A DNA stretch of 64,000 nucleotides from Candidatus Latescibacterota bacterium (lineage in GTDB: Bacteria; Latescibacterota; UBA2968). Under the pieces are notes generated by a model, which was not told the DNA's origin, made no database searches, and worked only from the letters and a program-made list of their open reading frames with translations. How positions within the stretch are numbered: the stretch's first letter is position 1; every line of letters starts with the position of its first letter. The stretch covers positions 4,256,001 through 4,320,000 of the forward strand of contig OZ220741.1 of the NCBI GenBank assembly GCA_965116885.1, read 5' to 3'. The position numbers were made by a program, and so were the translations under genes. Positions 23,584 through 39,331 of this stretch are shown one piece after another.

Positions 23584-24283
23584 GTTGCTTTTCTTTGTCG
23601 GGAAAATGCACAGTCTGAGCATGAGAATCGTTTTTCACCGCAAAATGATTTTTATGTTTGGCGGGATTGTCGCGTATTACGCAATTTTGTACGCGATTGC
23701 AATCTGGCGTCCAGGTGAAGGGCTTTCAGTCGAACAAGCCCTCCATGTATTGGTTGAAGTGCCGGGCACGGTGCTTGCAATTTACCTGACGATGGATCTG
23801 GTGTCGGGGGAGAGGGATAAGGATACGCTTGAAATTCTGTTCAGCACGGCGGTCAGCCACTACGCGACCTGGGCCGTGAGAATTGTGTCGATCAGCGTTG
23901 CGCTATTTGCCACGCTGATGGCAATGAGCACGATTTCCTACTATTTTTTTGCGGAGTTTCCCTATCTCCTGGGGGGATTGAATGCATGTATCCCTGCCTT
24001 TTTTATGGTAGGAGCCACATTTCTGTTTTCTGTCTTGTGTCGCAGTGGCAATGCGGCTGGCATGCTCGCCGTTGGCCTTTTGATTGCGATTTTGCTTTCG
24101 ACGGAGGCGTTTGAGGATACATCGTATTACCTTTTTCTCAAGCCATTTGACCCGCCTTCAGATTTAGATACCAGCCTGTGGGTAAATCGCGTGGTCTTAA
24201 ACCGCGCGGGCATTGCCATTCTGGGAATACTGTTCATTTTTCTCGCTCTGAGACGAATGATAGACCGCGAAAAGCTGCTGTGA
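23555..24283 (+). CDS. ABC-2 type permease
   Basis: About 6 TM segments; ERDKDTLEILFS motif; overlaps the upstream gene. Exact start (23549 or 23555) uncertain. Confidence 0.8.
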   Translation: MNTNSLTWRELLFFVGKMHSLSMRIVFHRKMIFMFGGIVAYYAILYAIAIWRPGEGLSVEQALHVLVEVPGTVLAIYLTMDLVSGERDKDTLEILFSTAVSHYATWAVRIVSISVALFATLMAMSTISYYFFAEFPYLLGGLNACIPAFFMVGATFLFSVLCRSGNAAGMLAVGLLIAILLSTEAFEDTSYYLFLKPFDPPSDLDTSLWVNRVVLNRAGIAILGILFIFLALRRMIDREKLL

Positions 24284-24297
24284 TAGAGTCAAAAGCG

Positions 24298-24319
24298 TCC
24301 GCAGATGACGCAGATGAAA
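24298..24319 (+). repeat. CGCAGAT tandem repeat (2 units)
   Basis: TCCGCAGATGACGCAGATGAAA; same motif recurs at 34936. Confidence 0.7.
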
Positions 24320-24340
24320 GTCAAAAGCAACATCCATAAG

Positions 24341-24375
24341 AAAGCCCCTTGTCAATACAGACCAGGGGGTTTTTT
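24341..24375 (+). terminator. Intrinsic terminator of the transporter operon
   Basis: AAAGCCCCTTG...CAGGGGGTTTTTT. Confidence 0.7.
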
Positions 24376-24425
24376 ATGCCATTATTCAACAAAACAAAAA
24401 CGCATCAACGAAGAAAAACAGCCCA

Positions 24426-24460
24426 AATCAGAAATACGCAAGTGCTAATCAGAAATACGC
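24426..24460. promoter_or_regulatory. 14-bp direct repeat with 21-bp period, candidate AraC-family operator
   Basis: AATCAGAAATACGC at 24426 and 24447, upstream of an AraC-type gene. Confidence 0.55.
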
Positions 24461-24691
24461 GAGGATTTTTTGAATTGCAATTACAGGTGTGATGGTGGTA
24501 TCATAAAAGAGCCGCCGACAAGACGAGAACAAGTCAACTGTCAGCGGCGGTAGTATCTCAAGCTGGGAACTTGAGAAGACTAAATGAAAAGTAACGACCT
24601 GAAGCGCGATTGTCAATATGTACGACTGCGTTTCATTGCACCTGAATAATGTGGTTTTAAAAATTTCACGGCGTACTGATGATGACAAAAG

Positions 24692-25498
24692 ATGGGCAAA
24701 CAGAAAATTCTTATTGCAGATCACGATTCCCGCGTTCTATCGACACTCACAGAATTTTTGAGTGATGAACCTTATGAGATATTCAAGGCGGCAAATGGAA
24801 TGGAAGGGCTTGACGTTTTAAGACGCGAGAAGATTGATCTTGCTATTGCTGAAAAGCATATCGCGGGTCTTGGTGGGATAGCATTTTTGAAGGCCGTGAA
24901 GGTAGAGAAAATTCAGACAAATATTTTGATCATGGGCGGGATTGAGCATATGGAATCAACAGAAAAAATACTCAAGAGTGGTGCTATAAGCGTACTCGAT
25001 AAACCCGTCAAGAAGGGTGACTTTTTGGCAAAGATCAAAGCATTTATGCCACCAAATAACGGCAGAAACTGGTCTGAGAACGGCCAGTCAGGATCGGAAG
25101 CCTCGCCTTCATACCCCGTCCCAGTACAGGTTTCACAAGACAAGTGGAAAACTGATTTGGAATCATTTTTGAATGAGCGTTACCACGATCCAGACCTGGA
25201 ATGTGATGTTCTCATGTGCTACTTCGATTTATCGCGGTCACATGTTTGTGCGCTATTCAAAAAATATTTTGACAAGACTTATCGTGAAGTATTGCGAGAG
25301 GTCAGAGTAGCACAGGTAGAGCGTTTCTTAAAAGAATCATCTCTGAGTGTGAATGAAATTGCACACCTGTGTGGGTTTCATTCATCAGATCGTTTGCGTG
25401 TGGCTTTCAAGAAGATACATGACATTTCTCCTACCCTTTACCGCAAAAAAGTTATAAGCGGAGAAATTCCAAGAAGGTCCGGAAGGTTCAAGCGATGA
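24692..25498 (+). CDS. Atypical response regulator: REC domain plus AraC HTH
   Basis: KILIADHD...DLAIAE...KP receiver; LS...LFKK, SVNEIAHLCGF, FKK...SPTLYR AraC signature. Confidence 0.9.
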   Translation: MGKQKILIADHDSRVLSTLTEFLSDEPYEIFKAANGMEGLDVLRREKIDLAIAEKHIAGLGGIAFLKAVKVEKIQTNILIMGGIEHMESTEKILKSGAISVLDKPVKKGDFLAKIKAFMPPNNGRNWSENGQSGSEASPSYPVPVQVSQDKWKTDLESFLNERYHDPDLECDVLMCYFDLSRSHVCALFKKYFDKTYREVLREVRVAQVERFLKESSLSVNEIAHLCGFHSSDRLRVAFKKIHDISPTLYRKKVISGEIPRRSGRFKR

Positions 25499-28020
25499 AG
25501 ATTTTACATATTCTGGATGTTTCGCTGCCACACCGACAAAGCGGCTACAGTTTGCGAAGCCAATATATCATCAATACGCAGAAAGTCCTTGGCTTTGATC
25601 CTGTGGTGCTCACGCGGTGGGGCGTGTCTGAACAACTCGTGGATGGAGTTGAATATATCAACGATGTGCCTTATTTGAGAAATACTTCTGAATCATACAC
25701 AGCACGTCTGTCCGAACGTCTGGGCAAATTTCAATTGCCAGATACCCCACGAATCTATCGTGTGGGGCAGGAGCATCACTTTCGCAAGCGCGTTGCGCGG
25801 GCGATTGAGACGGAAAGACCCGATGTGTTACACGCGGCGTCACCGGGTAGAAATGCACAGGTTGTGATTGATATAGGACATCACTGTGGTCTGTCTGTGG
25901 TGTACGAGGTGCGGGGTTTGTGGCACGATAGCGGTGTGGCGCAGGGTATGCTGGCTCCCGATTCAGAGGTGTATCGCCAGCAGCACGCGCAACATGTCAA
26001 TGCGATGCAACAGGCCGATGCTGTGGTGACGCTGTCCGAGGTGTTAAAAGTTGAGTGCATACGCGAAGGGGTTGACGAAGAGAAAATTGGCGTAGTGCCC
26101 AATGGTGTGGCAGTTGAGCAATATGCACCGAAAGATCGGGCCGGCGAACTTGCCAATCGATTGGGTATTGAATCGGGCGATGTGGTGTTGGGCTATATCG
26201 GTCTGGTGCGGTCACTGGAGGGATTGCGGTTGTTGTTGCAGGCGTGTGAGGTTCTTCGCGGGCAGTATGCCAATCTCAAAGTGTTGATTGTGGGGGGTGG
26301 ACGAGACCTGCCAGCATTGCAGCGCGAAGCACAGAAACGCGGTCTGGCGGATGTGGCGATTTTTATGGGTGAAATACCGCACGATCAAATCGCGGACTAT
26401 TACGCGATGTTAGATGTTTTTGTGATTCCGCGTACGCGTAGCCGCGTTACCGAACTGGTCACGCCGATGAAGCCTTATGAGGCAATGGCGATGGAAAAAG
26501 CCGTTGTCGTCAGCGATGTAGCCGCACTCAAGGAGGTGGTTACAGACGGAGAAACCGGGCGCGTTTTTGTGGCAGATGATGTCGAAAGTCTCACCCAGAC
26601 GTGTGCCGAACTCATCGAGAATCCCTCGCTGCGGATGCAATTAGGACAAAAGGGCAGCGAATGGGTGCGGTCAGAGCGCACATGGAGGCAGGTTGTGGAA
26701 CGCTATCGCGGGATCTATGAGGCCGCGATAGCCGTTTGTCCTGCCCGTATGGAATGTGTTAATCAACAAGCAAAAACCCGCACACGCGTTGCATTTTACA
26801 GCCAGCATCTCATTGGCGTTGGGCACCATTTTCGCAATCGACAGATTGTCAATGAACTGGTCAAAACACGCGATGTGTTTTTTATCGATGGTGGACGTCC
26901 TGTTCCCGAGGCTGACCTCGATGAGCGGGTGACGCGTATTTCTCTGCTGCCCCTTCGCCTGGGCGCACAGGGTATTGAGTCTGTTGATAAAGAGCGCGAT
27001 TTGCAGACTGTGATGCGCGAGCGCCAGACACAGCTTGCCGACGTGATGGAGCAGATTCGCCCCGATGTGTTTTGTGTTGAGTTTTTTCCCTTTTCCCGGT
27101 GGTCGCTCAAGAGCGAGATTCTCAATACTATTGTCAGGCTCAATGAGATCAATCCCGGCGCGAAGGTGTTGTGTTCGCTGCGCGATATTCCCACGCGGGC
27201 AAAAAGCGATGTGTTGCAACCGACTGTTGCGCTTGCACAGAGACGCGATGGAGATGCGATGCGGTTTTATTCGGTGCCTTTTGGCGGGATACATCACGAG
27301 TATTTGGCTTTTAATCGGCGGTATTACGAGGAGGTTGTGCCCGTGTTGAATCAGTATTTCGATGCGGTGATGGTGCATGGCGATTCCCAACTATCCCGGT
27401 TGGAAGATCACTTTCCCTGGGTTGCTGATATCGGTATTCCCATCATTTATACGGGGTTTGTTTCTGAGAAACTCGAGAACGCATCTCGACCTGATGGTGC
27501 GCCGAATAGGTATGTGCTGGTCAGTGCTGGCGGTGGGGCTGAGGGGCTTGCGCTTGTTGCGCCGTGTATTGAAGCGTGGAAGCAATTGGCACAGGACAAT
27601 ACGCTCAACGGACGTGAGATGGTGATTTTTGCCGGTGCGTTTATCGAAGAGAAGCATTTTGACGCTTTGCGAGAATTGTGCGGTGATGGTCCGTTTCGCA
27701 TTGAGCGCTTTACGTCCAATTTTTTGGCGTGGATGAAATACGCAGATTTGTCGATTAGTCGTGCGGGCTACAATACGTGTATGAATGTGCTCGAGACACA
27801 GGTCCCATCGATTCTGGTGCCGAGTATTGCGATGGATGATCAGGGATTTCGCGCGCAGCAGTTGATGGGGTTGGGTATTGCCGGGGTGATACATCCCGAT
27901 CAAATAGGTGCGGGAAAGATGGCAAAAGCTATTGGCGAAATGCTCGCAAGTTTTGTGCCTGAACACCATCTATCTCTGGATGGTGCCGAGCAAACGCGAA
28001 AGTTTATAGAATCAGTCTAA
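25495..28020 (+). CDS. Two-domain glycosyltransferase (GT4 plus GT28/GT1-like GT-B)
   Basis: N-half YEVRG, ELVTPMKPYEAMA, VVSDV; C-half YSQHLIGVGH, VSAGGG, SRAGYNT. Confidence 0.88.
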   Translation: MKILHILDVSLPHRQSGYSLRSQYIINTQKVLGFDPVVLTRWGVSEQLVDGVEYINDVPYLRNTSESYTARLSERLGKFQLPDTPRIYRVGQEHHFRKRVARAIETERPDVLHAASPGRNAQVVIDIGHHCGLSVVYEVRGLWHDSGVAQGMLAPDSEVYRQQHAQHVNAMQQADAVVTLSEVLKVECIREGVDEEKIGVVPNGVAVEQYAPKDRAGELANRLGIESGDVVLGYIGLVRSLEGLRLLLQACEVLRGQYANLKVLIVGGGRDLPALQREAQKRGLADVAIFMGEIPHDQIADYYAMLDVFVIPRTRSRVTELVTPMKPYEAMAMEKAVVVSDVAALKEVVTDGETGRVFVADDVESLTQTCAELIENPSLRMQLGQKGSEWVRSERTWRQVVERYRGIYEAAIAVCPARMECVNQQAKTRTRVAFYSQHLIGVGHHFRNRQIVNELVKTRDVFFIDGGRPVPEADLDERVTRISLLPLRLGAQGIESVDKERDLQTVMRERQTQLADVMEQIRPDVFCVEFFPFSRWSLKSEILNTIVRLNEINPGAKVLCSLRDIPTRAKSDVLQPTVALAQRRDGDAMRFYSVPFGGIHHEYLAFNRRYYEEVVPVLNQYFDAVMVHGDSQLSRLEDHFPWVADIGIPIIYTGFVSEKLENASRPDGAPNRYVLVSAGGGAEGLALVAPCIEAWKQLAQDNTLNGREMVIFAGAFIEEKHFDALRELCGDGPFRIERFTSNFLAWMKYADLSISRAGYNTCMNVLETQVPSILVPSIAMDDQGFRAQQLMGLGIAGVIHPDQIGAGKMAKAIGEMLASFVPEHHLSLDGAEQTRKFIESV

Positions 28021-28032
28021 ATGAGGTGAAAG

Positions 28033-29436
28033 ATGAAAATTTATGTGTCACATCAGTATCACGACCGCGAGAAAGTAATGGCGTCTAATAGCGGGGCAGT
28101 TCTTTCGGGGTTTAACCATGTACAGGCGTTATCAAAGTATTGCGATGTGTATATGCCAGCATCTGAAGCGGTGGATTATGGTCCGAATTTGCACGGCATT
28201 CAACCAGCTTATGAGACGATTGATGCTTCTCGCCAGTGGTTTGCGCGGCAAAATTTTGATGGTGTGTTGATGTTTGAACCCAAGGCAGATGACCTGGCAT
28301 TTTTTCGCCATGTGTGTCCTGCACCCATTGTGATTCGGCTGTCGTGTTCTTTTGGAAACAATCGGGATTTTGTCGATAAGGTGCTTCAATGTTATTCGCT
28401 GTTACGGCCTTGTGATGCGCTGTCGCCCAAGTCGGCCTATGTCGCTGACGAAGTGGGCAAGATAGTGTTTGACCGATCGTATTTGCACGCGATTACCAAT
28501 GGGGTAGATGCCGAGGTGTTTGTGCCGATGGATAAGTTGCAAGCGCGCAAAGAGGTCGCGGATAAGACGGGTGATCAACGTTTTTTGGAGATGCCTGTGG
28601 TGGGTTTTTGTGGGCGGTTTGAGCCGGGCAAAGGCGCGTATCCGTTTTTGCGGATGGCCGATCTGAATCCCAATGTGTTGTTTGCGGTGATTGGCAAGCA
28701 GTTCGCACCTGTGACACATCCTCCCAATGTGATCTTTTTGGGCGCGCAACCCTATACGGATATGCCGCTGTATTACAATATGCTCGATGTGTTGTGTGCG
28801 CTGTCGGTGTATTCGTATGAGTCGTGTCCTTCAACCGTGATAGAGGGCATGGCGTGTGGTCTTCCAGTTGTGGCGACAAATTTTGCGGGCGCGCCAGAGT
28901 TGTTGGGCAGTTGTGGGCGATTGATTGAGATTGAGCGATTTGAAGACGAGCCATTGAATGTGACGGGTTATATCGCTCCTGAGGTGATTTCGGATGCTGT
29001 GCGCGATTTGTTGAATAGCAAAACGGAGCGTGTAGATATGGGGGAGCGCGCTCGCAAACGCGCGCTCGATTTTTCCTGGGATTGTATGGCGCAGCAGCAC
29101 ATGGCACTGTTTGAAAGTCTGCGGATCAAACGCGATGTCTCCGTCTGCCCGATTCCAATAACCGTAAGTTTTACACAGGGTTGTGATATGTCCGGTGTGC
29201 CGAAAAGTGTGTCCAAAGGATTTAACTATTTGGGAAGCGCGCAAGGTCCGTTGCCTCGCATTTCGTTTTTTGGGCAAGATATGTCCCTTATTGAAGGCCT
29301 GGGCCTTCACTTGATGCAACATTTACATCCAAACGAAGTCGAAGCTGCTCTGATAGGTTTATGCGAGACGCGTGCTGAAGCTTATAAGACGCTTCGCAAA
29401 ATCCGACACTTCAGCGATATGCTCACAGCTCCCTGA
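28033..29436 (+). CDS. GT4 family glycosyltransferase with C-terminal extension
   Basis: ITNGVD..F, GRFEPGKG, ESCPSTVIEGMACGLPVV, FSWD. Confidence 0.88.
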   Translation: MKIYVSHQYHDREKVMASNSGAVLSGFNHVQALSKYCDVYMPASEAVDYGPNLHGIQPAYETIDASRQWFARQNFDGVLMFEPKADDLAFFRHVCPAPIVIRLSCSFGNNRDFVDKVLQCYSLLRPCDALSPKSAYVADEVGKIVFDRSYLHAITNGVDAEVFVPMDKLQARKEVADKTGDQRFLEMPVVGFCGRFEPGKGAYPFLRMADLNPNVLFAVIGKQFAPVTHPPNVIFLGAQPYTDMPLYYNMLDVLCALSVYSYESCPSTVIEGMACGLPVVATNFAGAPELLGSCGRLIEIERFEDEPLNVTGYIAPEVISDAVRDLLNSKTERVDMGERARKRALDFSWDCMAQQHMALFESLRIKRDVSVCPIPITVSFTQGCDMSGVPKSVSKGFNYLGSAQGPLPRISFFGQDMSLIEGLGLHLMQHLHPNEVEAALIGLCETRAEAYKTLRKIRHFSDMLTAP

Positions 29437-29603
29437 CAGGTGCCACGGAGATGCTATCTGTGCTTCGCTGAGATATTGAAGAAGGGAGGTGAGAGATGAC
29501 AAGACGAGTTGTATCAAATCCTATGCAATCGATTTGATACAATGTAGAAAGGCAAAAAAGAAGTTGATGTACATTACAATTCACTTATTTTTTGGAGGAT
29601 ATC

Positions 29604-29954
29604 ATGTCTCAAACATTGTCAAACCGCATGACAACGGTCCCGCAGCAATCGTTTTTGAATTGTGTATCTTTATCTATACGGGAGGAAGATTTAAACACAA
29701 GTGAGTTAGATGGACTTCACGGTGGTAATCCCAGGATAGTTCAATTTGTTCTAGAAAATATCCCAAGAGTCTATAACCAAGCTCAACAAGCTATCAATAG
29801 AGGGATGCCCCCTGTTATACCTGCTACTCTGCACAAAGCTGAACAACTTATTGATGCTTGTGATAGTATTATAGATGAAATATCAGAGGGAATTGAGGAT
29901 TTAGGGAATAACTGGGAGCGGTATCTTTACCATGCTGCATACAGTGGACGATAG
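29604..29954 (+). CDS. Candidate double-glycine-leader bacteriocin/RiPP precursor (41-aa leader, 75-aa core)
   Basis: GGAGG RBS; leader ends EEDLNTSELDGLHGG; C39 transporter lies 2 kb downstream. Confidence 0.8.
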   Translation: MSQTLSNRMTTVPQQSFLNCVSLSIREEDLNTSELDGLHGGNPRIVQFVLENIPRVYNQAQQAINRGMPPVIPATLHKAEQLIDACDSIIDEISEGIEDLGNNWERYLYHAAYSGR

Positions 29955-30079
29955 CCCAAAGGCTTCTGGTAGGGCTTCGGCAGGAGCAGCCCATCATCCC
30001 TGTCTGCTCTGCCGACAGACCGGCATCTTTCGAGAACGCTGAAGATGATGATAAGCCTGTAAAAAGACTTCCTCATCGG

Positions 30080-30212
30080 TCACCACATTACGCACCTAGT
30101 GATCGTTTGAGCTGTCGGTTCAAACTCTTTGGCCAAATCGTTGGCACTACGACCAGACTAGCGCGGACATTTGTTGGTGAAATGCCGCTGGATATGATCT
30201 TTTTCTTCCCAC
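30080..30212 (-). pseudogene. IS3-family orfA fragment, frameshifted
   Basis: AGGAG + GTG: MGRKRSYPAAFHQQMSALV, frameshift, SGRSANDLAKEFEPTAQTI. Confidence 0.75.
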
Positions 30213-30256
30213 TTTGGACTCCTCTCCCTGAAAGAGATAAGTTGTCCACTAAAACG

Positions 30257-30381
30257 ACGCTGTTGCCGAATTCCGAATTCTGTCTTGATGCAACTAAACA
30301 TAGGGCTTATGAGCCTGAATTCAGACACCAATAGCCATTTTTCCAACTACAGAGTCCTCTTGATCAATTCGGCAACAGCAT
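30257..30381. mobile_element. ~125-bp MITE or internally deleted IS
   Basis: Terminal inverted repeats A[C/T]GCTGTTGCCGAATT (15/16 match); flanking direct repeat CTAAAACG at 30249 and 30382. Confidence 0.8.
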
Positions 30382-30435
30382 CTAAAACGGGGCAAGTCCA
30401 ATCTCAAGCGTCCGAATCATTGGGAAAATTAAAAA

Positions 30436-30678
30436 GTGAAAAAAAACCATTCTTTTAGTTACTGGCAATTGCTGTTCAATTTTATAGTAGGGGTTTTTTT
30501 CGGCCCAATCTGCCTCACTGTGTTATTTATGCCGATACACCTTGATGGTCTCATTTTGATGTTGAGTAGTATTGTAGGTGCCTTTGCATTTAGTGGATTT
30601 TATTGGATGATTTATAAGCCAAGGAAATGCGAGAACCACCCTTCTAAAAAAAATAAATACCAGCGTCAGACAGAGTAG
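30436..30678 (+). CDS. Small two-TM membrane protein, possible immunity protein
   Basis: Two hydrophobic segments and a basic tail; AT-rich; weak RBS. Confidence 0.5.
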   Translation: MKKNHSFSYWQLLFNFIVGVFFGPICLTVLFMPIHLDGLILMLSSIVGAFAFSGFYWMIYKPRKCENHPSKKNKYQRQTE

Positions 30679-30938
30679 TGGATATTTACCAGATCTTTGT
30701 CCTTTTTCCTTTCATTGTCACCACACCCATTTCAGGTCTTATTCTGTGGTTAGGTCCATCCATCAGGTCGCTATTACTCTTCAGTTTCACAACAGCTTTT
30801 TGTGCTGGTGATGTCTTGATATTTTGAAATATCGGGCAAATGGAAAATGACCAATGGATTCACGATCATCCGACGGAAATAGGTTGCGACGTATTAGCGG
30901 AGTCTATCGTTGTGTCCTCTGAAGAATACCGCGGATAG
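30657..30938 (+). pseudogene. Fragment resembling the C-terminal half of a DUF3267-type membrane zincin, with in-frame TGA
   Basis: YQIFVLFPFIV...CAGDVLIF*NIGQ...IHDHPTEIGCDV; stop at 30825; N-terminal HExxH half absent. Confidence 0.45.
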
Positions 30939-30974
30939 ATCAAAACCAACTAAAACTCACATTGGAAGCGTGAG

Positions 30975-31838
30975 ATGACATATCCAAATCTGAAACAGTC
31001 AGTTTGGCTGCTGGTATTATTGTGCCTCATTACAATTGGTTTAGCCATATTGATGGGTGTTATAGGTGCCATTATTGACGAGCCACTGTCTGATAATACT
31101 TACCTGACGAGCCTTGTGTCATTGGTAAGTATTATTCTGCTTCTGTGCTACGTTTCGCATCGGACAGGTCGAGCATGGACAGATATGTTGCCTCTTGCGA
31201 TTAAAAATATAGACTATGATTGGCGCATGTGGCTTGCCGTTGGGTTATCCATCTTTGGACTGGGAGTTGTTCTTTCTGAATTGGACAATGCGGTGGTATC
31301 TATATTGCCAATGCCCGAAATGTTTCAGGACATCTTTCAGATAATGATCGGGAAAAAAACATCTTATCTGTCAGCCTTATTTGGCGCAGTCGTGATAGCA
31401 CCTCTTGGTGAAGAGATCGTTCATAGAGGCATTATTTTGAAAGGTTTATTGGCACATTATAGTCAAAATTGGGCGATTGTTTGGTCGGCAATTCTGTTTG
31501 GTCTGATGCATCTGAATCCGTGGCAATTTCCAATAGCTTTTATATTGGGACTTGTCTTTGCCTATTGGGTTATTCAAACGGGGTCTTTGTGGCCTAGTAT
31601 TTTGGGACACGCACTGCACAATTTGATAACTGTGACATTTTGGCATTTCGATGTACCGGGTTTTCCTGTTTCGAAAGATTTGAATGTTGTAATTCACAAT
31701 CCATGGTGGTTGAATGTGTGCGGACCAATATTGGCCACGATTGGGTTGTGGTGGTTTTATAAGGTGGCGAAACGCGAAAAAACAGATCACCGTGAGACGG
31801 AGGTTGAACTTGAAGAAACTTTAGGATGCGATAATTGA
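30975..31838 (+). CDS. CPBP/Abi (CAAX) family intramembrane protease
   Basis: EEIVHRG, FGLMH, HALHN motifs; multiple TM segments. Confidence 0.93.
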   Translation: MTYPNLKQSVWLLVLLCLITIGLAILMGVIGAIIDEPLSDNTYLTSLVSLVSIILLLCYVSHRTGRAWTDMLPLAIKNIDYDWRMWLAVGLSIFGLGVVLSELDNAVVSILPMPEMFQDIFQIMIGKKTSYLSALFGAVVIAPLGEEIVHRGIILKGLLAHYSQNWAIVWSAILFGLMHLNPWQFPIAFILGLVFAYWVIQTGSLWPSILGHALHNLITVTFWHFDVPGFPVSKDLNVVIHNPWWLNVCGPILATIGLWWFYKVAKREKTDHRETEVELEETLGCDN

Positions 31839-31884
31839 GAAGGATATGTGCCGATCCACACAGTACAGTGGAGAAAGTTAAAAA

Positions 31885-34800
31885 ATGAACCTTTCGCACT
31901 TTTTCATCAATAACTCAGTTCGGTCACAATCTGTTCCTTTTTCCTTTGGGAGCATTGTTTTTCAACAGGGTCAAGATGGTGAGGCGTTTTACATCGTGCA
32001 GTCTGGGCGGTTGCGGGTGATGAAGCAGGATGGGAATGGCAATTCGACAACTGTGGGCTATTTGTATGCGGGCGATCATTTTGGCGAAGGGGCACTGTTG
32101 AGTAGGCAGGGGCACCGAGCGACGGTGCGAGCGGTTGAGGATGCGGATGTGTTGCAGGTGCCGAAGGATGAGTTTTTTAAGGCTGTGAGAAAACATTCTG
32201 ACGTAAGGGCATATCTTGAGGAGCAGGTCTCCTGTATTGCGTATCGGGATTTTACGCGATTTTTGAAAGGGGATGTTCCGGGCGAAGTGATGCGGGTGTT
32301 GTTTGCGCGGTTGAAGCGCGAGGCGGTTGAGGAGGGTGTGGCCGTTGTTGAGCGAGGTCAGTTGGGTCAGCGTTTTTATTTGATTGGCAGCGGTCAGTTG
32401 GAGGCTGTGTTAGAAAATGGGGATACGGTGATTCTACGCCCGGGTGATTATTTTGGAGATGGTAGAGATGATGAAACGGTGATTCGCAGTCGGCGTGATA
32501 GCGTGCTCTTTTATATAGATAAAAGCGATTTTAATAAGTTAAAAGCTATGATGCCGGGATTTGAGGCGGCGTTGGAGAAAGGTCGCATATCGCGTGGAGA
32601 ACAGCGATCGAATGAGTCATTGTTTCAACGAGCGCGGGATGATCGGCAAGCCCTGTCCCCATCGGGGTATCGAGAGACCACACCTGTTGAGCAATCTGTC
32701 GCCCAAGAAGACACAGAGGCCAATCCAGCATCCAATGTGGTTAATATCAGAATAGACGGTGAAAAACCACAAGTGCCCACATGGTTTCGCTTTCCGTTTT
32801 TGAAGCAGCACGATCAATCGGATTGCGGCGCAGCGTGTTTGGGCATGATTTGTAAGTATTACAAGATGCCTATTGGGTTGAACAGACTGCGCGATATGTC
32901 CAATGTGTCGCGGTATGGCACATCGATGGCGGCATTGGCTGAGGCTGCGGAAACCATAGGTTTTGTCACGCGCGGCGTGCGCACGGGATATGAAGCTCTG
33001 ATGCGTACAGAATTGCCGGCCATTCTCCATTGGGAAGGCAATCATTTTGTAGTCTTGTATCAGATAAATAAAAAGGAGGTGAAGATAGCAGATCCCGGCG
33101 TGGGTATTCGCAAGTTGTCGCGGGCAGAGTTTGAGAAGGGCTGGACGAATATGGCGCTTTTGTTGGAATACACAGATCAGGTGGCAGAGAATGAACCGTC
33201 TCAGTCTTCTTTTAAGCGGTTTTTTCCATTGATCAGGCCCTATAGGGGCATTTTGATTGAGGTATTGCTGGCGTCTCTGGTGCTCAGTTTGTTCGGTCTT
33301 GCATCGCCCATTTTTATGCAGACAATTGTCGATCAGGTCTTAGTGCATCACGATGAGGACTTGTTGAATTTGATGCTGGTGGGTATGGTCGTGGTTGCGT
33401 TGTTCCAGATGGGGACATCAACGTTGCGCGTCTATTTGATCGGGTATGTGAGTGCGCGGTTGAGCATTGCGATGTTGTCGCGTTTTTATCAGCATTTATT
33501 GGCACTGTCCATGCGGTTTTTTGCTCTGAGGCGCACGGGCGATTTGACCACGCGGTTTCGGGAGAATGCAACGATTCAGCGTTTGTTGACGGGTGCGACG
33601 GTTTCTGCGGTTCTGGATTTTATCATGCTGTTTGTCTATCTGGGCTTGATGTTTTATTACAATGCCGAACTGACGCTGGTCATGCTGATTTTCGTGCCGC
33701 TATCTGTAGGTCTCACGCTGATTTATACGCCTATTTTGAAGTCTTTCAGCCAGCGCGCTTTTCTGGCACGCGCAGAACAGTCATCGGTCTTGATTGATTC
33801 GCTGCATGGCATTGATGTGGTCAAAGCCTCGGCAGTAGAACGCGCGACACGGTGGCATTGGGAAGGCAAGTTCACAAAGGAGATTCAAATTGGCTTTCAA
33901 CGGTTAAAAATGCAGATGTTGTTTGGGGGGATGGGAAGCGTGATCAATTTGCTCAGCAGTACGGTGATTTTGTGGTATGGTGCCTCATTGGTGATTGCGG
34001 GGGACCTGTCGGTTGGGCAGTTGATGGCGTTTAATGCGCTGATTGGCAATGTGATGGGACCGATTATGGGGTTGATTGGAATATGGCCGCAGGTGCAAGA
34101 AGCGCGTATTGCTCTGGATCGGTTAAATGATGTGTATGATACGCAGATGGAGGATGCGCGGCAACAGGGTCAGGGTTTGATCTTAAAGCATTTGGAAGGG
34201 CGCGTGGTTTTTGAGGGGGTATTTTTCAGATATGGTGTCGGTTCTGATGAACCGTATGTGTTGAATAACATAGACCTGACGCTTGAACCTGGTCAAAAAG
34301 TTGCAGTTGTGGGACGCAGTGGCGCGGGTAAAACCACGTTGGTCAAGCTGGTACCCCGTTTGTTTGATCCGTCAGAAGGGCGCGTGACGCTTGATGGCAT
34401 GGATGTGCGAGATCTGGATCCCCATTGGTTGCGGCGGCAGGTGGGTATGGTGATGCAGGAGCCGTTTTTGTTCTCTGGCACGATTGCAGAAAATATCGCT
34501 ATTGGCCAGTCAGATGCGGACATGGACCGCATTTTGGAAGTGGCAAATCTATCTTGTGTACACGATTTCGTGAGCGATATGCCTTTGGGCTATGAGACAA
34601 AGGTGGGCGAGCAGGGTGTGGGGCTGTCTGGTGGACAACGACAGCGGATTGCAATAGCACGGGCGCTGTATTGTGATCCGAAAATTTTGATTTTTGATGA
34701 GGCGACTAATGCGTTGGATACAGATTCAGAACAGGCGATACAGGCGAATTTAGATCTGTTTTTGGATGCTCGCACGGCGTTGATTATCGCGCATCGGTTG

Positions 34801-34935
34801 AGTACGGTGCGGGATGCGGATGCGATTGTGGTCTTAGATAAGGGTCATATTGTGGAGGTGGGCACGCACGATGAGTTGATGGTGCAAGAGGGGTTGTATT
34901 ATCACATGTGCAGTCAACAGCTGCAGGTGGTGTGA
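31885..34935 (+). CDS. Peptidase-containing ABC transporter (two cNMP-like domains, C39, TMD, NBD)
   Basis: GDHFGE/PGDYFG; QHDQSDCGAACL, HWEGNHFVV, IADP; GRSGAGKT, LSGGQRQR, DEAT. Confidence 0.95.
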   Translation: MNLSHFFINNSVRSQSVPFSFGSIVFQQGQDGEAFYIVQSGRLRVMKQDGNGNSTTVGYLYAGDHFGEGALLSRQGHRATVRAVEDADVLQVPKDEFFKAVRKHSDVRAYLEEQVSCIAYRDFTRFLKGDVPGEVMRVLFARLKREAVEEGVAVVERGQLGQRFYLIGSGQLEAVLENGDTVILRPGDYFGDGRDDETVIRSRRDSVLFYIDKSDFNKLKAMMPGFEAALEKGRISRGEQRSNESLFQRARDDRQALSPSGYRETTPVEQSVAQEDTEANPASNVVNIRIDGEKPQVPTWFRFPFLKQHDQSDCGAACLGMICKYYKMPIGLNRLRDMSNVSRYGTSMAALAEAAETIGFVTRGVRTGYEALMRTELPAILHWEGNHFVVLYQINKKEVKIADPGVGIRKLSRAEFEKGWTNMALLLEYTDQVAENEPSQSSFKRFFPLIRPYRGILIEVLLASLVLSLFGLASPIFMQTIVDQVLVHHDEDLLNLMLVGMVVVALFQMGTSTLRVYLIGYVSARLSIAMLSRFYQHLLALSMRFFALRRTGDLTTRFRENATIQRLLTGATVSAVLDFIMLFVYLGLMFYYNAELTLVMLIFVPLSVGLTLIYTPILKSFSQRAFLARAEQSSVLIDSLHGIDVVKASAVERATRWHWEGKFTKEIQIGFQRLKMQMLFGGMGSVINLLSSTVILWYGASLVIAGDLSVGQLMAFNALIGNVMGPIMGLIGIWPQVQEARIALDRLNDVYDTQMEDARQQGQGLILKHLEGRVVFEGVFFRYGVGSDEPYVLNNIDLTLEPGQKVAVVGRSGAGKTTLVKLVPRLFDPSEGRVTLDGMDVRDLDPHWLRRQVGMVMQEPFLFSGTIAENIAIGQSDADMDRILEVANLSCVHDFVSDMPLGYETKVGEQGVGLSGGQRQRIAIARALYCDPKILIFDEATNALDTDSEQAIQANLDLFLDARTALIIAHRLSTVRDADAIVVLDKGHIVEVGTHDELMVQEGLYYHMCSQQLQVV

Positions 34936-34976
34936 TCCGCAGATGAACGCAGATAGACGCAGATGAAAACGCAGAT
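34936..34976 (+). repeat. CGCAGAT tandem repeat (4 units)
   Basis: TCCGCAGATGAACGCAGATAGACGCAGATGAAAACGCAGAT directly after the stop codon. Confidence 0.85.
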
Positions 34977-35050
34977 CTGAGGGCTGGTAGGCTGGGTGGT
35001 CATCTCATGTCTCACTTCTAACGTCTTACCGCTTTTAAGGAGTCTGCATC

Positions 35051-36433
35051 ATGGCAGAATCGCTTTTGGAGATATCGACCGAGACAATGTCTCCCGGTGT
35101 AATCCAAGGACAAGATGACGCGGCAGAAGAGGTACAGGCGTTTATGGGGTCTTTGCGGCCCTTTTGGGGGCGCGCATTGCTCTATATTGTCCTGCTATTT
35201 GTGATTGTTGCCATTACCTGGGCGTGGTGGAGTAAGATAGATGTGGTGGCATCAGCACCTTTTCGGTTGGTGCCTCTGGGACAAGTGAAGACGATGCAGG
35301 CACAGCGAGGGGGTGAGATTGAGTTGATTGGTGTGAAAGAAGGGGATCATGTCGAGAAAGGGCAGGTATTGTTCAAGCTGAAATCGTGGGAGACCTGGGG
35401 AGAGTTGCGGGAATGGGAGCAGGCAAAGATGGCTTTTCAAAAGGCAGAGTATGATTTCAAGACGGTGTTGCCACAAAGGGCAAGGTTAAATCGAGAGACG
35501 ATAGGGGCATTGGAACAACGTCTTTCTGTTTTGCAGCAGTTTATGGAGGCACATCAGGATGCGCTGGAAGATTATCACAGTGATGTGGGGGATGGTGTCG
35601 GATCGAAAACCACAACATCTGACGCGGGGTTGCAGGCACAGATTGGATTTCGACAGGCTGAGATTGATCTTATGAAAGGGGAGTTTTTGCAGCAAAAGAC
35701 GCTGTTTGAGCGCGAGTTGATCAGCCGGGTGGATATGAATCGCGCGCGTGTGCAGTATTTAAGTGCTTTATCTGCGCTTCCGTCGCGTATGTCAGAGATA
35801 TACAAGAATGAAATGGCAGTGACTGATCTCAAGCGTCAAATCACAGAGGCGCAAATTGCACACGAGCGCGAGGCATCGCAGATGCGACACACTTATGAGA
35901 CCGCACAATTGCGATTGGAACAGGCGCGCAAACGCATTGATCGCACCCTCGAAGCCGAGTCGGATTTGATTCTGGCACCTGAGTCGGGGATTGTCACACA
36001 GGTGATGGTAAATGCGATGGGACAGGTGATCAGCAAAGGGCAGGCTTTAATCGCGCTGGCACCTGCTTCTGCACCGGTGGTTGCAGAAGTGATGGTGTTG
36101 AATAAAGATGTGGGCTTGCTCAAGCCCGGACAGTTGGTCAAGCTGAAATACGATGCTTATGCCTTTCAGAATTTTGGTATCAAACGCGGGTGGCTTACAT
36201 CCATCTCGCCCGATGCGGTGATTGATGAAAGTGTCGGGACAATATTTAAGTGCGTTGTCGAGTTGGAAGAAAATACGATGCGCGTGAAAGGATATGACAA
36301 GCCTTTGATGTTCGGCATGAAGGGCACGGCGGAGATTATGACCGATCGGCAATCGGTTTTGCTGATGTTGCTTTCTCCTTTGCGACAGCTTTACGAGTCG
36401 GCGAGATACGATGTGCAGGAGGGGGTATTGTGA
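35051..36433 (+). CDS. HlyD family secretion adaptor
   Basis: N-terminal TM, VKEGD.V.KGQ.L, coiled coil, GQ.VKLK.DAY.FQ.FG, ISPDA, GM.G.AEI. Confidence 0.93.
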   Translation: MAESLLEISTETMSPGVIQGQDDAAEEVQAFMGSLRPFWGRALLYIVLLFVIVAITWAWWSKIDVVASAPFRLVPLGQVKTMQAQRGGEIELIGVKEGDHVEKGQVLFKLKSWETWGELREWEQAKMAFQKAEYDFKTVLPQRARLNRETIGALEQRLSVLQQFMEAHQDALEDYHSDVGDGVGSKTTTSDAGLQAQIGFRQAEIDLMKGEFLQQKTLFERELISRVDMNRARVQYLSALSALPSRMSEIYKNEMAVTDLKRQITEAQIAHEREASQMRHTYETAQLRLEQARKRIDRTLEAESDLILAPESGIVTQVMVNAMGQVISKGQALIALAPASAPVVAEVMVLNKDVGLLKPGQLVKLKYDAYAFQNFGIKRGWLTSISPDAVIDESVGTIFKCVVELEENTMRVKGYDKPLMFGMKGTAEIMTDRQSVLLMLLSPLRQLYESARYDVQEGVL

Positions 36434-37203
36434 TGTCAGAAGTACTAATTCAGGTCAATGGGACAGAGGTGTTATTGAGCCATGTCGTGCGGCAGATGGG
36501 TGTTGCTGATAATCTGCGTTTTTTTGATGGGTTTGCACGCAGGGAATTGATACGACAACTCGCCCGGCGCGAGGGTGTTTGTGTAGCGCAGGAGGATATT
36601 CAGCGCAGGGTAGATGAATGGCGGTATCAACATCGTCTCGAACAGGTGGAAGATACAGAGGTTTATCTTGCAAAGCGGGGTATTACGCTTCAGGATGTGG
36701 CAGAAGATGCCGAGGTGAGGCGGTTGGAGTTTTTGCTGTCTGAGAAGATTGCCGAGGGACAGGTTGAATCTTATTTTGCACAGCACACGCTGGAATTTGA
36801 CGAGGCGGAGATTTGCTGGATTTTTCACACGGCTAAGGATGTGATCGACGAGGTTGATTTGCAGATACGAGAAGATGGCGCAGATTTTTACGCGATGGCG
36901 CGTCGGTTTTCTCAAGATGCACACACGCGACCAGGCAGTGGCTTTCTGGGGCGTGTTCGGCGCAAGCAGTTACCAAAGGGGATTGCTGCGCGCGTTTTTG
37001 CCGCTTCGATAGGTGAAGTTTTTGGTCCAGAAAAAATATCGAAAGGCTTTGCGTTGTACCTGGTACAACAACTCTATCCAGCAACACTAAATGAGCAGAT
37101 AAAAAAAGAGATCCGCAAACATCTGTTTAATCAGTGGTTGCAACGAGAGATGCAGCGGGCAGATATACGGTATCCGATTTGGGAGGCGGAAACGCCTAAA
37201 TAG
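36430..37203 (+). CDS. PpiC/parvulin-type peptidyl-prolyl isomerase (SurA-like)
   Basis: GADFYAMARRFSQD...GFLG...VF....GEV.GP. Confidence 0.85.
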   Translation: MMSEVLIQVNGTEVLLSHVVRQMGVADNLRFFDGFARRELIRQLARREGVCVAQEDIQRRVDEWRYQHRLEQVEDTEVYLAKRGITLQDVAEDAEVRRLEFLLSEKIAEGQVESYFAQHTLEFDEAEICWIFHTAKDVIDEVDLQIREDGADFYAMARRFSQDAHTRPGSGFLGRVRRKQLPKGIAARVFAASIGEVFGPEKISKGFALYLVQQLYPATLNEQIKKEIRKHLFNQWLQREMQRADIRYPIWEAETPK

Positions 37204-37216
37204 AAGGAGAATATGG

Positions 37217-38296
37217 GTGAAAATTATTCTTGTTGCAGGTGCGCGACCTAATTTTATGAAAGTTGCCCCGCTGTGGAATCAACTAATTGAGACGCCCGAT
37301 GTGTTTGATCCGATTCTGGTGCATACGGGACAGCACTACGACGATTTTATGTCCGAGATTTTCTTTCGAGACTTAAATCTTCCCAGGCCACATTATGAAT
37401 TAAATGTGGGGTCGGGTAGTCACGCTTACCAGACAGCGCAGATCATGATGGGATTTGAGGAGGTTTTACTTCAAGAAAGGCCGGATTGGGTTCTTGTGGT
37501 TGGGGATGTAAATTCCACTTTGGCATGTGCGATGGATGCAGCGAAATTGCAAATTCCCATTGGACACATAGAGGCGGGGTTGCGAAGTTGGGACCGTTCA
37601 ATGCCCGAAGAGATCAATCGGCTCGTAGTGGATGCCATATCCGATCTCCTGTTTGCACCTTCAACGCAGGCATGTGAAAATCTGAAGCGAGAAGGCATAG
37701 AAGATCACCGCATTCATTTTGTGGGCAATGTGATGATCGATTCTCTGATGTTGCTATCTCCCAAAGCCGATGAATCCCGCATTCTGGATATACACGGTTT
37801 ATCAGTTCAAGATTACGTTTTTCTAACCCTCCATCGCGCCTCAAATGTCGATTGTCCGGATACGTTGGCTGGCATTGTCTCCGCGTTGCAAGTTCTCAAA
37901 TGTCCAATCGCGTGGCCTTTGCATCCAGGAACGCGCAATCGCCTGTCCCAATTTGGTTTTTTGCAAGGGCTTGAGATGATGGACAATATGAAATTTATGG
38001 ATCCCGTTGGCTATCTCGATTCTTTGAAACTTCAGAAGAATGCAAAATTTGTGATGACAGATTCTGGAGGATTGCAAGAAGAGACGACGGCTTTAGGTGT
38101 GCCGTGTTTGACGCTTAGAGAGAATACAGAACGACCAGAGACTATAGATATTGGGACGAACACACTGGTGGGTGTTTGTCCCGAACGTATTGTTGCAAAG
38201 GCTGAATCTGTTTTGAATGGCCATTATAAATCTGGTTGCTTGCCAGAATTGTGGGATGGAAATACAGCGGAGCGAATCGTCGCGTTACTTCCATGA
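37217..38296 (+). CDS. wecB: UDP-N-acetylglucosamine 2-epimerase (non-hydrolysing)
   Basis: GARPNFMK, HTGQH, HIEAGLRS, PEEINR, DSGGLQEE, TERPE. Confidence 0.95.
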   Translation: MKIILVAGARPNFMKVAPLWNQLIETPDVFDPILVHTGQHYDDFMSEIFFRDLNLPRPHYELNVGSGSHAYQTAQIMMGFEEVLLQERPDWVLVVGDVNSTLACAMDAAKLQIPIGHIEAGLRSWDRSMPEEINRLVVDAISDLLFAPSTQACENLKREGIEDHRIHFVGNVMIDSLMLLSPKADESRILDIHGLSVQDYVFLTLHRASNVDCPDTLAGIVSALQVLKCPIAWPLHPGTRNRLSQFGFLQGLEMMDNMKFMDPVGYLDSLKLQKNAKFVMTDSGGLQEETTALGVPCLTLRENTERPETIDIGTNTLVGVCPERIVAKAESVLNGHYKSGCLPELWDGNTAERIVALLP

Positions 38297-38305
38297 ACCG
38301 ATGAG

Positions 38306-38364
38306 AAAAAAATCCCTGTAAATGCAGTGCGATTTCCCGCCCTTGCTATTCACAGGGATTTTTT
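38306..38364. terminator. Probable terminator after wecB
   Basis: AAAAAATCCCTGT...ACAGGGATTTTTT. Confidence 0.65.
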
Positions 38365-38427
38365 GTTTAATTGTTTGTGGTTATCGACATCGACACAGAA
38401 TAATATGATATTGATCGGGAGGATTCC

Positions 38428-38610
38428 ATGAAGAAAAAAAATGTCGTCTATTCCGAGTCCCCTTGGCCGTTCATATTTCCTATCATTTTACTGTATTTGG
38501 GTCTTGTTATAGTAGGTATTTATTTCAAGGGCAAGGAACTGAATAACATTTCTTTCTTTCTGTTGCCCAAAATGCGTGATTTATATACCTTGAATACTTT
38601 AGAACTTTAA
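38428..38610 (+). CDS. Possible small single-TM protein
   Basis: GGGAGGA RBS; basic N-terminus followed by a hydrophobic helix. Confidence 0.35.
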   Translation: MKKKNVVYSESPWPFIFPIILLYLGLVIVGIYFKGKELNNISFFLLPKMRDLYTLNTLEL

Positions 38611-38668
38611 CATCTCATAATAGGGTAGGGGGCGACGTGCTCCCTCGAATTCTTTTAGGAGAACCTCT

Positions 38669-39331
38669 ATGCAGCCACCACAGCCGCAACAAGAAGACAT
38701 ACTGGTCTGGTTTCTCAAAGTGTGGAATCAGATTGAAGCAAATTATATCAGAATCCTCACGGGATTTGGCATTGCCATTGTCGCTGCGTTGATAGTCCTG
38801 TTTTTTTATCGGGCACAAACACAACAGGCAGAGGCAGCCCGTGCAGCTCTTGGAGACGTTTATATCGCACTTTATGAAGGGCGCGTAGAAGATGCGCTTA
38901 CCGCATCGCAGGAAGTAATAGAAACCTATGCGGGCGAAGCCGAGGCGGGCGAAGCATTGATGGCACTGGCTAATTTACATTATGAAGAAGGGCGTATCGC
39001 AGAGGCCCAGGCATATTTTCAACAATACCTGGATGAATATCCAACAGATGGACCATTGGGTTATGGTGCCTGGTCGGGCTTGGCATCATGTCTTGAAAAT
39101 GAAGAAAAATTCGCCGAAGCAGGTCAACAGTTCGCAGCCTTCGCCGAAGCACATCCCGGATCGCCATTTGCGCCGATAGCCCTGAAGGAAGCCGGCAGAT
39201 GTTACGAACTCGGCAAAATGCCTCAGCAGGCGAGTGATGCGTATCAAAAGATCGTCAAAGAATACCACGAGTCATCCGTCACAAGATTTGCACGCGGGCA
39301 ATTGAACATGATGGGTATTGAGATAGATTAG
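38669..39331 (+). CDS. Membrane-anchored TPR protein (YfgM-like)
   Basis: N-terminal TM followed by TPR-like helical repeats; AGGAG RBS. Confidence 0.8.
   Translation: MQPPQPQQEDILVWFLKVWNQIEANYIRILTGFGIAIVAALIVLFFYRAQTQQAEAARAALGDVYIALYEGRVEDALTASQEVIETYAGEAEAGEALMALANLHYEEGRIAEAQAYFQQYLDEYPTDGPLGYGAWSGLASCLENEEKFAEAGQQFAAFAEAHPGSPFAPIALKEAGRCYELGKMPQQASDAYQKIVKEYHESSVTRFARGQLNMMGIEID

Follow-up and report, generated by a model that had tools for sequence, protein, structure and literature searches.

What does a bacterium make with genes that place glycosyltransferases (GTs) directly in front of a small double-glycine peptide and its exporter? This question is raised by a block of genes at positions 24692-38296 of a 64,000-nucleotide stretch of Candidatus Latescibacterota DNA (hereafter the window; positions 4,256,001-4,320,000 of OZ220741.1, assembly GCA_965116885.1). 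Coordinates without a locus name are window positions, and domains were assigned with Pfam and NCBIfam. The genes, all on the + strand, code for a regulator, a GT fusion protein, a second GT (GT4b), a precursor peptide, membrane proteins, a C39-ABC exporter with cyclic nucleotide (cNMP)-binding domains, an HlyD-family adaptor, a PpiC-type peptidyl-prolyl isomerase and the epimerase WecB. An earlier note on this DNA had listed these genes and proposed that they produce a glycosylated bacteriocin or a similar ribosomal peptide; every gene on its list was found at the expected position and in the expected orientation. Our analysis identifies the block as one of several copies of a cassette for the production and export of small ribosomal peptides, which is restricted to its lineage. 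Judging from the genes and their conservation, we consider it an evenly balanced proposition that the GTs glycosylate the precursors in the cytoplasm, guided by their leaders, before export by a peptidase-containing ABC transporter (PCAT).

The gene arrangement is far from a chance one, because the same order recurs in dozens of loci. The window proteins were compared by tblastn with the window's own genome and with 43 loci that a fused-GT alignment had retrieved, nearly all of them from metagenome-assembled genomes of Ca. Latescibacterota. The conserved order is the GT1-like domain (the C-terminal half of the fusion), GT4b, open reading frames (ORFs) with the leader, exporter, HlyD and PpiC, and 22 of the 43 loci have all five parts (GT1-like, GT4b, exporter, HlyD and PpiC) in the order of the window. 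Of the 33 loci with a GT1-like domain of 49% identity or more, the cNMP-C39-ABC exporter follows downstream in 28, and the available sequence of the remaining five stops short of it. Co-occurrence of the two GTs with C39 transporters and double-glycine leaders in other genomes, which the earlier note had suggested as a check, was therefore borne out for close homologues, both GTs standing directly upstream of the leader ORFs and the exporter down to about 50% GT identity. The stretch between GT4b and the exporter is variable (0.9-6 kb, with 1-6 leader ORFs). Furthermore, the window's genome, which is complete (5.56 Mb), carries three full cassettes and one relative carries six GT loci. The cassette at 3.01 Mb has a stand-alone GT1-like gene and two precursors, and the one at 2.40 Mb (L046) has the GT1-like domain fused in front of a different GT4 domain. 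As counted by GT4b matches, the cassette is present in 21 of 21 genomes of the window's genus, in 1-4 copies, and GT-linked cassettes are confined to 3-4 related genera. The host is a sponge-type Ca. Latescibacterota, and parts of the window stretch occur in several sponge metagenomes; a metagenome scan with GT4b gave two real relatives and a weak one.

The peptide encoded in the block belongs to a family defined by its leader. The precursor gene (29604-29954, 116 aa) can also be extended to an upstream TTG at 29592, and the ATG at 29604, which stands behind a GGAGGA motif, was preferred. It codes for a 41-residue leader (29604-29726), delimited by alignments and a leader hidden Markov model (HMM), and a 75-residue core with its stop codon (29727-29954). 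The leader ends in ELDGLHGG, which places Glu at -8, Leu at -7 and -4 and Gly at -2 and -1, the consensus positions of double-glycine leaders; the core is helical-looking and mildly acidic (net charge -4), and has one Cys. Eight homologues of this precursor have cores more variable than their leaders. The leader HMM (41 columns, built from 50 GT-linked precursors) detected 66 ORFs in 48 loci, 49 of them from the 50 building sequences. All were co-oriented with the GTs and, at the positions checked (all but those of L040 and of the long arrays in L009, L017 and L019), directly downstream of the GTs. The HMM found no leader ORF where the GT paralogues were distant ones. Of the 75,717 six-frame ORFs of the window's genome, four matched at E 4.5e-12 or better, the next best having E 0.045, and all four lie inside the three cassettes. 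The leader has no NCBIfam or Pfam match, and a profile of 37 whole precursors recovered 91 clusters among 1.84 billion representative proteins, which indicates a small family with very diverse cores. The alignments, the 66 leader ORFs and the 91 clusters thus show the conserved leader and variable core expected of precursors of peptides made by ribosomes and modified after translation (RiPPs).

Positions common to the leaders are Arg8, Ser/Thr11, usually Cys20, Leu23-Pro24, Leu30 and a final Gly-Gly (Gly-Leu in one subtype), with Arg8, Leu23 and Gly40 invariant in the alignment. The cores have 28-115 residues, are mostly strongly acidic (most with a charge of -5 to -13) and fall into about a dozen families, including short acidic ones ending in Trp, Gly/Ala-rich hydrophobic ones, long Ser/Thr/Gly-rich ones, ones ending in 5-7 Cys and the helical-looking window type. 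Most cores have 0-2 Cys, and Cys is the first core residue in 22 of 69 GT-linked cores. The leader-family precursors at L017:14436-14699 and L019:16972-17358 and 18835-19197 have cores ending in 4-7 consecutive Cys followed by Asp-Asp.

The genes downstream of the precursor provide for its export. The exporter (31885-34935, 1016 aa) consists of two cNMP_binding domains followed by Peptidase_C39, ABC_membrane and ABC_tran. Its C39 domain (E 5e-40) has intact QxxxxDCG and NHF(V) motifs (QSDCGAACL and GNHFVVL), whose Cys and His are the catalytic residues of such domains. The protein scores barely above the cutoff of TIGR01193 (526.4 against 523.85 bits) and below that of TIGR03796, the NHLP export ABC family (583 against 853 bits). 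With the C39 motifs, the TIGR01193 match and a double-glycine substrate encoded nearby, it has the features of a PCAT. It is followed by the HlyD-family periplasmic adaptor (35051-36433; TIGR01843, 215 bits against a cutoff of 208.65), which has one N-terminal hydrophobic helix, and by the PpiC-type isomerase (36430-37203; Rotamase), whose start overlaps the hlyD stop. The best NCBIfam match of the latter is TIGR04500, 'peptide maturation' (82.3 bits, below the cutoff of 180, profile positions 88-336 of 340); its sequence shows no signal peptide, and it is kept 3' of HlyD in cassettes with and without GTs.

The GTs are the candidate tailoring enzymes. The fusion protein (25495-28020, 841 aa) joins an N-terminal GT4 domain (25495-26754; Glycos_transf_1, Glyco_transf_4) to a C-terminal GT-B domain (26755-28020) that had been labelled GT28-like. 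This label was right as far as the Glyco_tran_28_C match goes (43.4 bits against a Pfam cutoff of 22), but in an AlphaFold2 (AF2) model searched with Foldseek the fold is nearest to GT1 natural-product glycosyltransferases. The model (predicted local distance difference test score, pLDDT, 88.5) is a two-Rossmann GT-B fold whose best matches are OleD/OleI, CalG1-4, Kcn28 and YjiC, then MurG (E 1e-15 to 1e-13, template modelling (TM) score about 0.5-0.6), at 13-18% identity; phmmer against PDB sequences reached E 0.014 at best. The GT1-like domain is the GT part kept in every GT-bearing cassette, as a stand-alone gene in L010-L022 and L047 and fused to a GT4 domain in both orders (window versus L046). 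The N-terminal GT4 domain is missing from about half of the cassettes; it is a relative and not a member of TIGR04063, a family of the PEP-CTERM/XrtA system (325.4 bits, below the cutoff of 442.05).

GT4b (28033-29436, 467 aa; Glycos_transf_1) has, in its AF2 model, a GT-B core of the retaining GT4 type followed by a beta-hairpin and three helices. The core is most similar by Foldseek to MshA, GlgM, BshA and PimA, and an alignment of 21 sequences shows an invariant E-x7-E motif and a family-specific C-terminal domain of about 100 aa conserved throughout. This domain gave no Pfam match at E up to 10 (four homologues) and no PDB sequence match with a 16-sequence profile, and an Atlas feature search returned only a 0.77 match to an unnamed cluster. 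Our impression from the order of its predicted secondary structure elements is that it resembles the leader-binding winged-helix domains of RiPP enzymes (RiPP recognition elements). The earlier note had contrasted GT-B enzymes in this block with the GT2 enzymes of glycocins, and we agree, since the Pfam matches are to GT4 and Glyco_tran_28_C families, the folds are GT-B and no Glycos_transf_2 match was found in the block. Neither did the Pfam scan find a flippase, a polymerase or a priming transferase there, so that the block holds no lipid-carrier glycan machinery, which supports the earlier interpretation. We favour a link between the GTs and the peptides because the GTs are tightly and repeatedly linked to precursors and exporter and no lipid-linked glycan pathway is present in the cassette.

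WecB, a non-hydrolysing UDP-GlcNAc 2-epimerase (37217-38296; TIGR00236, 331.4 bits against a cutoff of 210.15, residues 1-356), had been counted among the core parts, and here our data differ. Among informative cassettes, it lies 3' of PpiC in 6 of the 7 that have the full-length fusion and in none of the 9 that have the stand-alone GT1-like gene. WecB and the N-terminal GT4 domain are therefore an optional paired sub-module, since WecB follows only the variant with the extra GT4. A paralogue of WecB (91%) is encoded at 1.455 Mb in the window's genome.

Several observations weigh against glycosylation of the peptides. The strongest concern the sister genus g10, which appeared when 53 genomes of the order were searched for the leader family, GT4b and the GT1-like gene. 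The leader family was found in 41 of the 53, including 15 of 15 g10 genomes, and whole-genome searches found GT4b in none of these 15 and the GT1-like gene in none of them either. Six g10 loci were examined; each has 3-4 leader ORFs together with DUF3267 or CPBP genes and no GT match, and five of the six have the exporter (72-74% identical), HlyD and PpiC. The assumption that the GTs are integral to the cassette hence fails: since the g10 cassettes do without any GT-B gene, export and function appear independent of the GTs, which by this genomic comparison are an accessory add-on module. In addition, no Ser, Thr or Cys position is common to all cores, and the window core does not begin with Cys. 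The closest family to the N-terminal GT4 domain (TIGR04063) is exopolysaccharide-associated, and GT4 and GT28 relatives mostly make glycans or glycolipids. Likewise, some GT1-like homologues of less than 45% identity come from loci of the polysaccharide type (L044/L028, which have WecB and a UDP-sugar dehydrogenase, L038 and L041). The GT-less genus g8 (L053) keeps an Arg-x-x-Thr motif in the leader, and the comparison of leaders described next covers related sequences from few genera with an HMM built from the GT-linked set, an origin that should bias GT-less matches towards likeness.

By HMM position, all 65 distinct GT-linked leaders have Arg8, compared with 13 of 22 g10 leaders, and Ser/Thr11 is found in 64 of 65 and 15 of 22, respectively. 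Positions on the C39 side are kept equally well or better in g10 (Leu23 22 of 22, Pro24 20 of 22, Gly40 and Gly41 22 of 22). None of 22 g10 cores starts with Cys, against the 22 of 69 mentioned above, and the homologous short acidic core family of g10 has Phe, Leu or Ile in place of Cys1. Such differences are compatible with a constraint that comes from the GTs, namely recognition of the N-terminal motif and possibly a Cys or Ser/Thr acceptor.

The g10 loci show other sugar-related genes. In L049, L051 and L059 a GtrA-like gene and a gene for a TMEM260-like GT-C protein O-mannosyltransferase, divergently oriented, adjoin the precursor array; half of this pair remains in L057 and GtrA alone in L050 and L052, and further out are a methyltransferase and, in L049 and L050 only, a GT2. 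The pair was considered as a second, periplasmic glycosylation route and rejected: the GT-C gene is intact in 3 of the 6 loci, and an orthologous pair lies at 5.18 Mb in the window's genome, far from the cassettes.

The earlier note had held that its proposal would fall if GT homologues sat mainly in surface-polysaccharide loci. The close homologues are accompanied by the exporter (28 of 33, as above), but those below 45% identity are partly of the polysaccharide type. Among GT1-like paralogues of 42-45% identity, two are in peptide-export-like clusters with S8 proteases and a third lies, together with a second WecB and a UDP-sugar dehydrogenase, in a cluster of the polysaccharide type; still more distant homologues, from other phyla, are in glycan loci. 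In the window's genome, the GT1-like paralogues in export-type clusters of another build (42-43%) are L045 (1.84 Mb) and L048 (5.48 Mb), which contain an AraC regulator, HlyD, an ABC exporter without C39, S8 subtilases (one fused to DUF1611) and a protein with TPR and Peptidase_C39_2 domains. The leader HMM found no ORF of the leader family in L045 or L048, and these clusters may be a second kind of GT-linked peptide system.

What the data establish is the gene content and its synteny, the existence of the leader family, its phyletic pattern and the folds; that the GTs act on the peptides, at which site and with which sugar, and what the product does, is inferred. The course of events would be as follows. 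In the cytoplasm, the GT1-like GT-B enzyme and GT4b would glycosylate the precursor, directed to it by the N-terminal region of the leader that includes Arg8 and Ser/Thr11. In the window variant, the fused extra GT4 domain and WecB would extend or alter the glycan, probably with a sugar of the N-acetylmannosamine (ManNAc) type. The cNMP-gated C39-ABC transporter would then cut after Gly-Gly and export the core via HlyD and an outer-membrane channel encoded elsewhere, with the PpiC-type protein as a putative chaperone or foldase. We propose more tentatively that the products form a new ribosomal glycopeptide class, in which leader-guided GT-B enzymes would perform S- or O-glycosylation, the C-terminal domain of GT4b would bind the Arg8/Ser-Thr11 motif, the optional GT4 and WecB would add a ManNAc-type sugar, and one enzyme set would serve dozens of unrelated cores; taken as a whole, this is possible and on balance doubtful.

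What the exported peptides do is a separate question from glycosylation, and whether they act as bacteriocins or as matrix or host factors has to be weighed on the cores and on the genes that accompany them. The 80-aa membrane protein with two helices (30436-30678), a candidate immunity or accessory protein, accompanies the window-type precursor in L004, L055 and L056. It is followed by the C-terminal remnant of a zincin-like DUF3267 membrane protein (30678-30827; a weak match to profile positions 50-96), which is intact (198 aa, E 2e-17) in L006, and by a CPBP (CAAX/Abi-type) intramembrane protease family protein (30975-31838; Rce1-like, 80 bits), a family represented by 17 variable-region ORFs across loci. 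In the tabulated cassettes the accessory membrane proteins co-vary with the core type. The Gly/Ala-rich type comes with a 90-aa membrane protein in 5 of 6 loci, and the sixth (L002), tabulated with an overlapping ORF, has a similar 95-aa ORF. CPBP, DUF3267 and the small membrane proteins are thus probably immunity or processing factors, and at least the hydrophobic Gly/Ala-rich peptides look bacteriocin-like, because core types that co-vary with membrane proteins make a toxin-immunity pattern.

An alternative that would hold with or without glycosylation is that the peptides serve in the matrix, in adhesion or in interaction with the host. A strongly anionic character together with richness in Trp or in Ser/Thr/Gly sets most cores apart from typical cationic bacteriocins, and 11 of the 34 tabulated cassettes have only acidic cores (families P1, P2 and P7) and no immunity-like gene, that is, no other variable-region ORF of at least 60 aa. 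The presence of the cassette throughout the genus and in several sponge metagenomes points the same way. There is also a precedent, by analogy, since in the available text of PMC12267927 Synechococcus elongatus exports its EbfG peptides via the C39 transporter PteB. The pairing of hydrophobic Gly/Ala-rich cores with small membrane proteins, as in toxin-immunity pairs, speaks for competition instead, and a conserved leader combined with hypervariable cores is what peptide arsenals driven by competition typically show. On this evidence a matrix or host role is somewhat unlikely.

It is a little less probable still, and unlikely in our view, that the products are double-glycine peptides without modification, akin to class II bacteriocins or microcins, and that the GT-B enzymes alter an envelope glycan or glycolipid for self-protection or make a co-regulated surface sugar. 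The existence of the GT-less cassette in g10, cores of the kind found in unmodified bacteriocins (Gly/Ala-rich hydrophobic or amphipathic acidic, with no common acceptor site), immunity-like membrane proteins that follow the core type, the glycan loci of distant GT homologues and the relationship of the N-terminal GT4 domain to the exopolysaccharide-system GT of TIGR04063 would all be explained in this way. It accords poorly with GT genes that stand immediately 5' of the precursors in each of the paralogous copies, as far down as about 50% identity, with a cassette free of lipid-carrier machinery, with an Arg8/Ser-Thr11 motif fixed only where GTs occur and with a GT1-like fold nearest to GTs that use soluble acceptors. 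That the GT genes and the export cassette are adjacent merely through inherited synteny, with no functional coupling, is very improbable: GT-linked cassettes do all come from 3-4 related genera, and the GtrA/GT-C pair of g10 (intact in 3 of 6 loci, with an orthologue elsewhere in the window's genome) illustrates that neighbours can be accidental, but the GT pair has moved with the cassette through duplication to several places per genome with different flanks, and the GT1-like gene has been rearranged (alone, or fused on either side) and never lost in those copies.

Leader-guided glycosylation followed by PCAT export, the reading we retain, resembles several known systems in part. Like the glycocins (sublancin/SunS, glycocin F), the cassette has a precursor with a double-glycine leader, GT genes alongside it and a C39-ABC exporter that would remove the leader, and about a third of its GT-linked cores start with Cys. 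According to the available parts of PMC11912497 and PMC12457901, glycocin GTs S-glycosylate Cys and belong to GT2. The enzymes here are GT-B (one GT1/GT28-like and one or two GT4), and the cassette differs further from glycocin loci in having no thiol-disulfide oxidoreductase genes, no two-disulfide helix-loop-helix core, a diderm host with HlyD, cNMP domains on the exporter, a 41-residue leader with an extra N-terminal motif and several unrelated, putatively glycosylated cores per cassette. In its mode of operation the system corresponds to a glycocin or class II bacteriocin locus placed in a diderm host, and it lacks the GT2 enzyme and the disulfide-stapled core that define glycocins. Colicin V CvaAB and the exporters of class II bacteriocins are PCAT systems for double-glycine peptides. 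These, the cyanobacterial double-glycine peptide clusters and EbfG/PteB share with our cassette the Cys and His motifs of C39, the ABC core, HlyD and adjacent leader-bearing substrates with immunity-like membrane proteins; they differ from it in that here two cNMP-binding domains precede C39, a PpiC-type protein always follows HlyD and, in the window's lineage, GT-B genes are present. Prochlorosins combine a conserved leader with hypervariable cores served by one enzyme set. With them and with the NHLP/Nif11 leaders the cassette has in common that one leader goes with many unrelated cores, that a locus holds several precursors and a genome several loci, and that the export module is C39-ABC plus HlyD, whereas its leader is a distinct short family and GTs take the place of lanthionine synthetases or cyclodehydratases as candidate tailoring enzymes. 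OleD/OleI, CalG1-4, Kcn28 and MurG have the fold of the fusion's C-terminal half, which differs from them (13-18% identity, as above) in being joined to a GT4 domain and in its association with ribosomal peptides. In the available text of PMC11912497 RiPP glycosylation is rare and the characterised RiPP GTs are mostly GT2. One literature search listed only known glycosylated RiPPs, and no description of the cassette was found in any of the searches or in the accessible main text, supplements aside, of two papers on sponge Latescibacterota (PMC12993501; 10.1101/2024.01.09.574914).

Other cassettes of the family show further variation. Between precursor and exporter L046 has two genes for M16 (insulinase-type) peptidases (L046:9872-12663), and its HlyD and PpiC-type domain form one 573-aa ORF (L046:15732-17453) in which about 50 residues of the HlyD end and about 76 of the PpiC start are missing with respect to the window. 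As HlyD and PpiC are separate matches in the related cassettes L030 and L033, this ORF may be a deletion fusion. Orphan precursor arrays also occur in the window's genus, L054 with four leader ORFs and CPBP, and L055 and L056 with one window-type precursor and the 80-aa ORF; as the 10 kb to either side contain no GT or exporter, these precursors would depend on proteins acting in trans. Insertion sequence (IS) elements or transposase genes lie in or beside variable regions at L001:16052-17241, L053:8453-14619 and L058:9604-10170.

The borders of the block and the remaining features of the window were also examined. The bounding terminators proposed in the earlier note are there, each with a hairpin and a T-run on the + strand. 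The upstream one (24335-24378; -22.7 kcal/mol, z -5.45 against 200 shuffles), missed by a simple terminator scan, closes the preceding transporter genes, and the downstream one (38307-38367; a long hairpin between an A-run and a T-run, z -4.46) was listed by that scan. The first gene of the block (24692-25498) codes for a regulator with a response-regulator receiver domain and an AraC-type helix-turn-helix (Response_reg, HTH_18), and a homologue lies upstream of the GT in L001-L004, L006, L029, L031, L034 and L046. In addition to the DUF3267 remnant, two features had been absent from the earlier list. A dispersed repeat at about 30100-30400, between precursor and membrane ORF, resembles a miniature inverted-repeat transposable element or an IS remnant and has nine further copies in the window's genome as well as copies in other loci (blastn); ORFs in 29955-30435 have no Pfam match. 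We do not claim an attenuator 3' of the precursor gene, as the hairpin there is no stronger than those of shuffled sequences (z -0.57). The second feature, an intergenic insert with a short dispersed repeat (34936-35050), is absent in related strains, being skipped by X3 and X4 contigs (34935 joined to 35051, 115 bases out) and by one X19 contig (34934 to 35051). Its repeat of about 35 bases, made of ACGCAGAT-like units at 34936-34980, has 45 further blastn-short matches in the genome and gives a depth spike in all four sequencing runs mapped; a similar unit lies at 24296-24318, just 3' of the upstream ABC-2 gene. The preceding transporter genes are a single 1574-aa ORF (18859-23583) that fuses an AcrB-type resistance-nodulation-division (RND) transporter to a C-terminal ABC ATPase (ACR_tran, ABC_tran), unbroken in L006 at 96% identity, and an ABC-2 membrane ORF (23438-24283) overlapping its end.

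Metatranscriptomes gave a weak hint that the precursor and the cassette are expressed. A 253-base contig of a sponge metatranscriptome (X20) is identical to 29488-29740, which includes the 5' part of the precursor gene, and contigs of a coral metatranscriptome (X19), mostly 85-99% alike, give depth in all 30 bins of 24001-39000, with pieces between 26788 and 36582 among the matches listed. These contigs come without a silent control stretch, and DNA carry-over is possible; regions that X20 leaves uncovered are uninformative.

If GT-B enzymes are indeed tied to this leader family with its roughly 90 core clusters, they would constitute a second, non-homologous route to RiPP glycosylation, and enzymes accepting such different peptides would be useful for glycopeptide engineering, as a promiscuous platform in an uncultivated sponge symbiont. 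The GT-less version of g10 offers a natural comparison for the role of the sugars. Lastly, because it is found in all 21 genomes of the window's genus, the cassette is likely important for life in the host, be it by way of competition or of matrix or host interaction.

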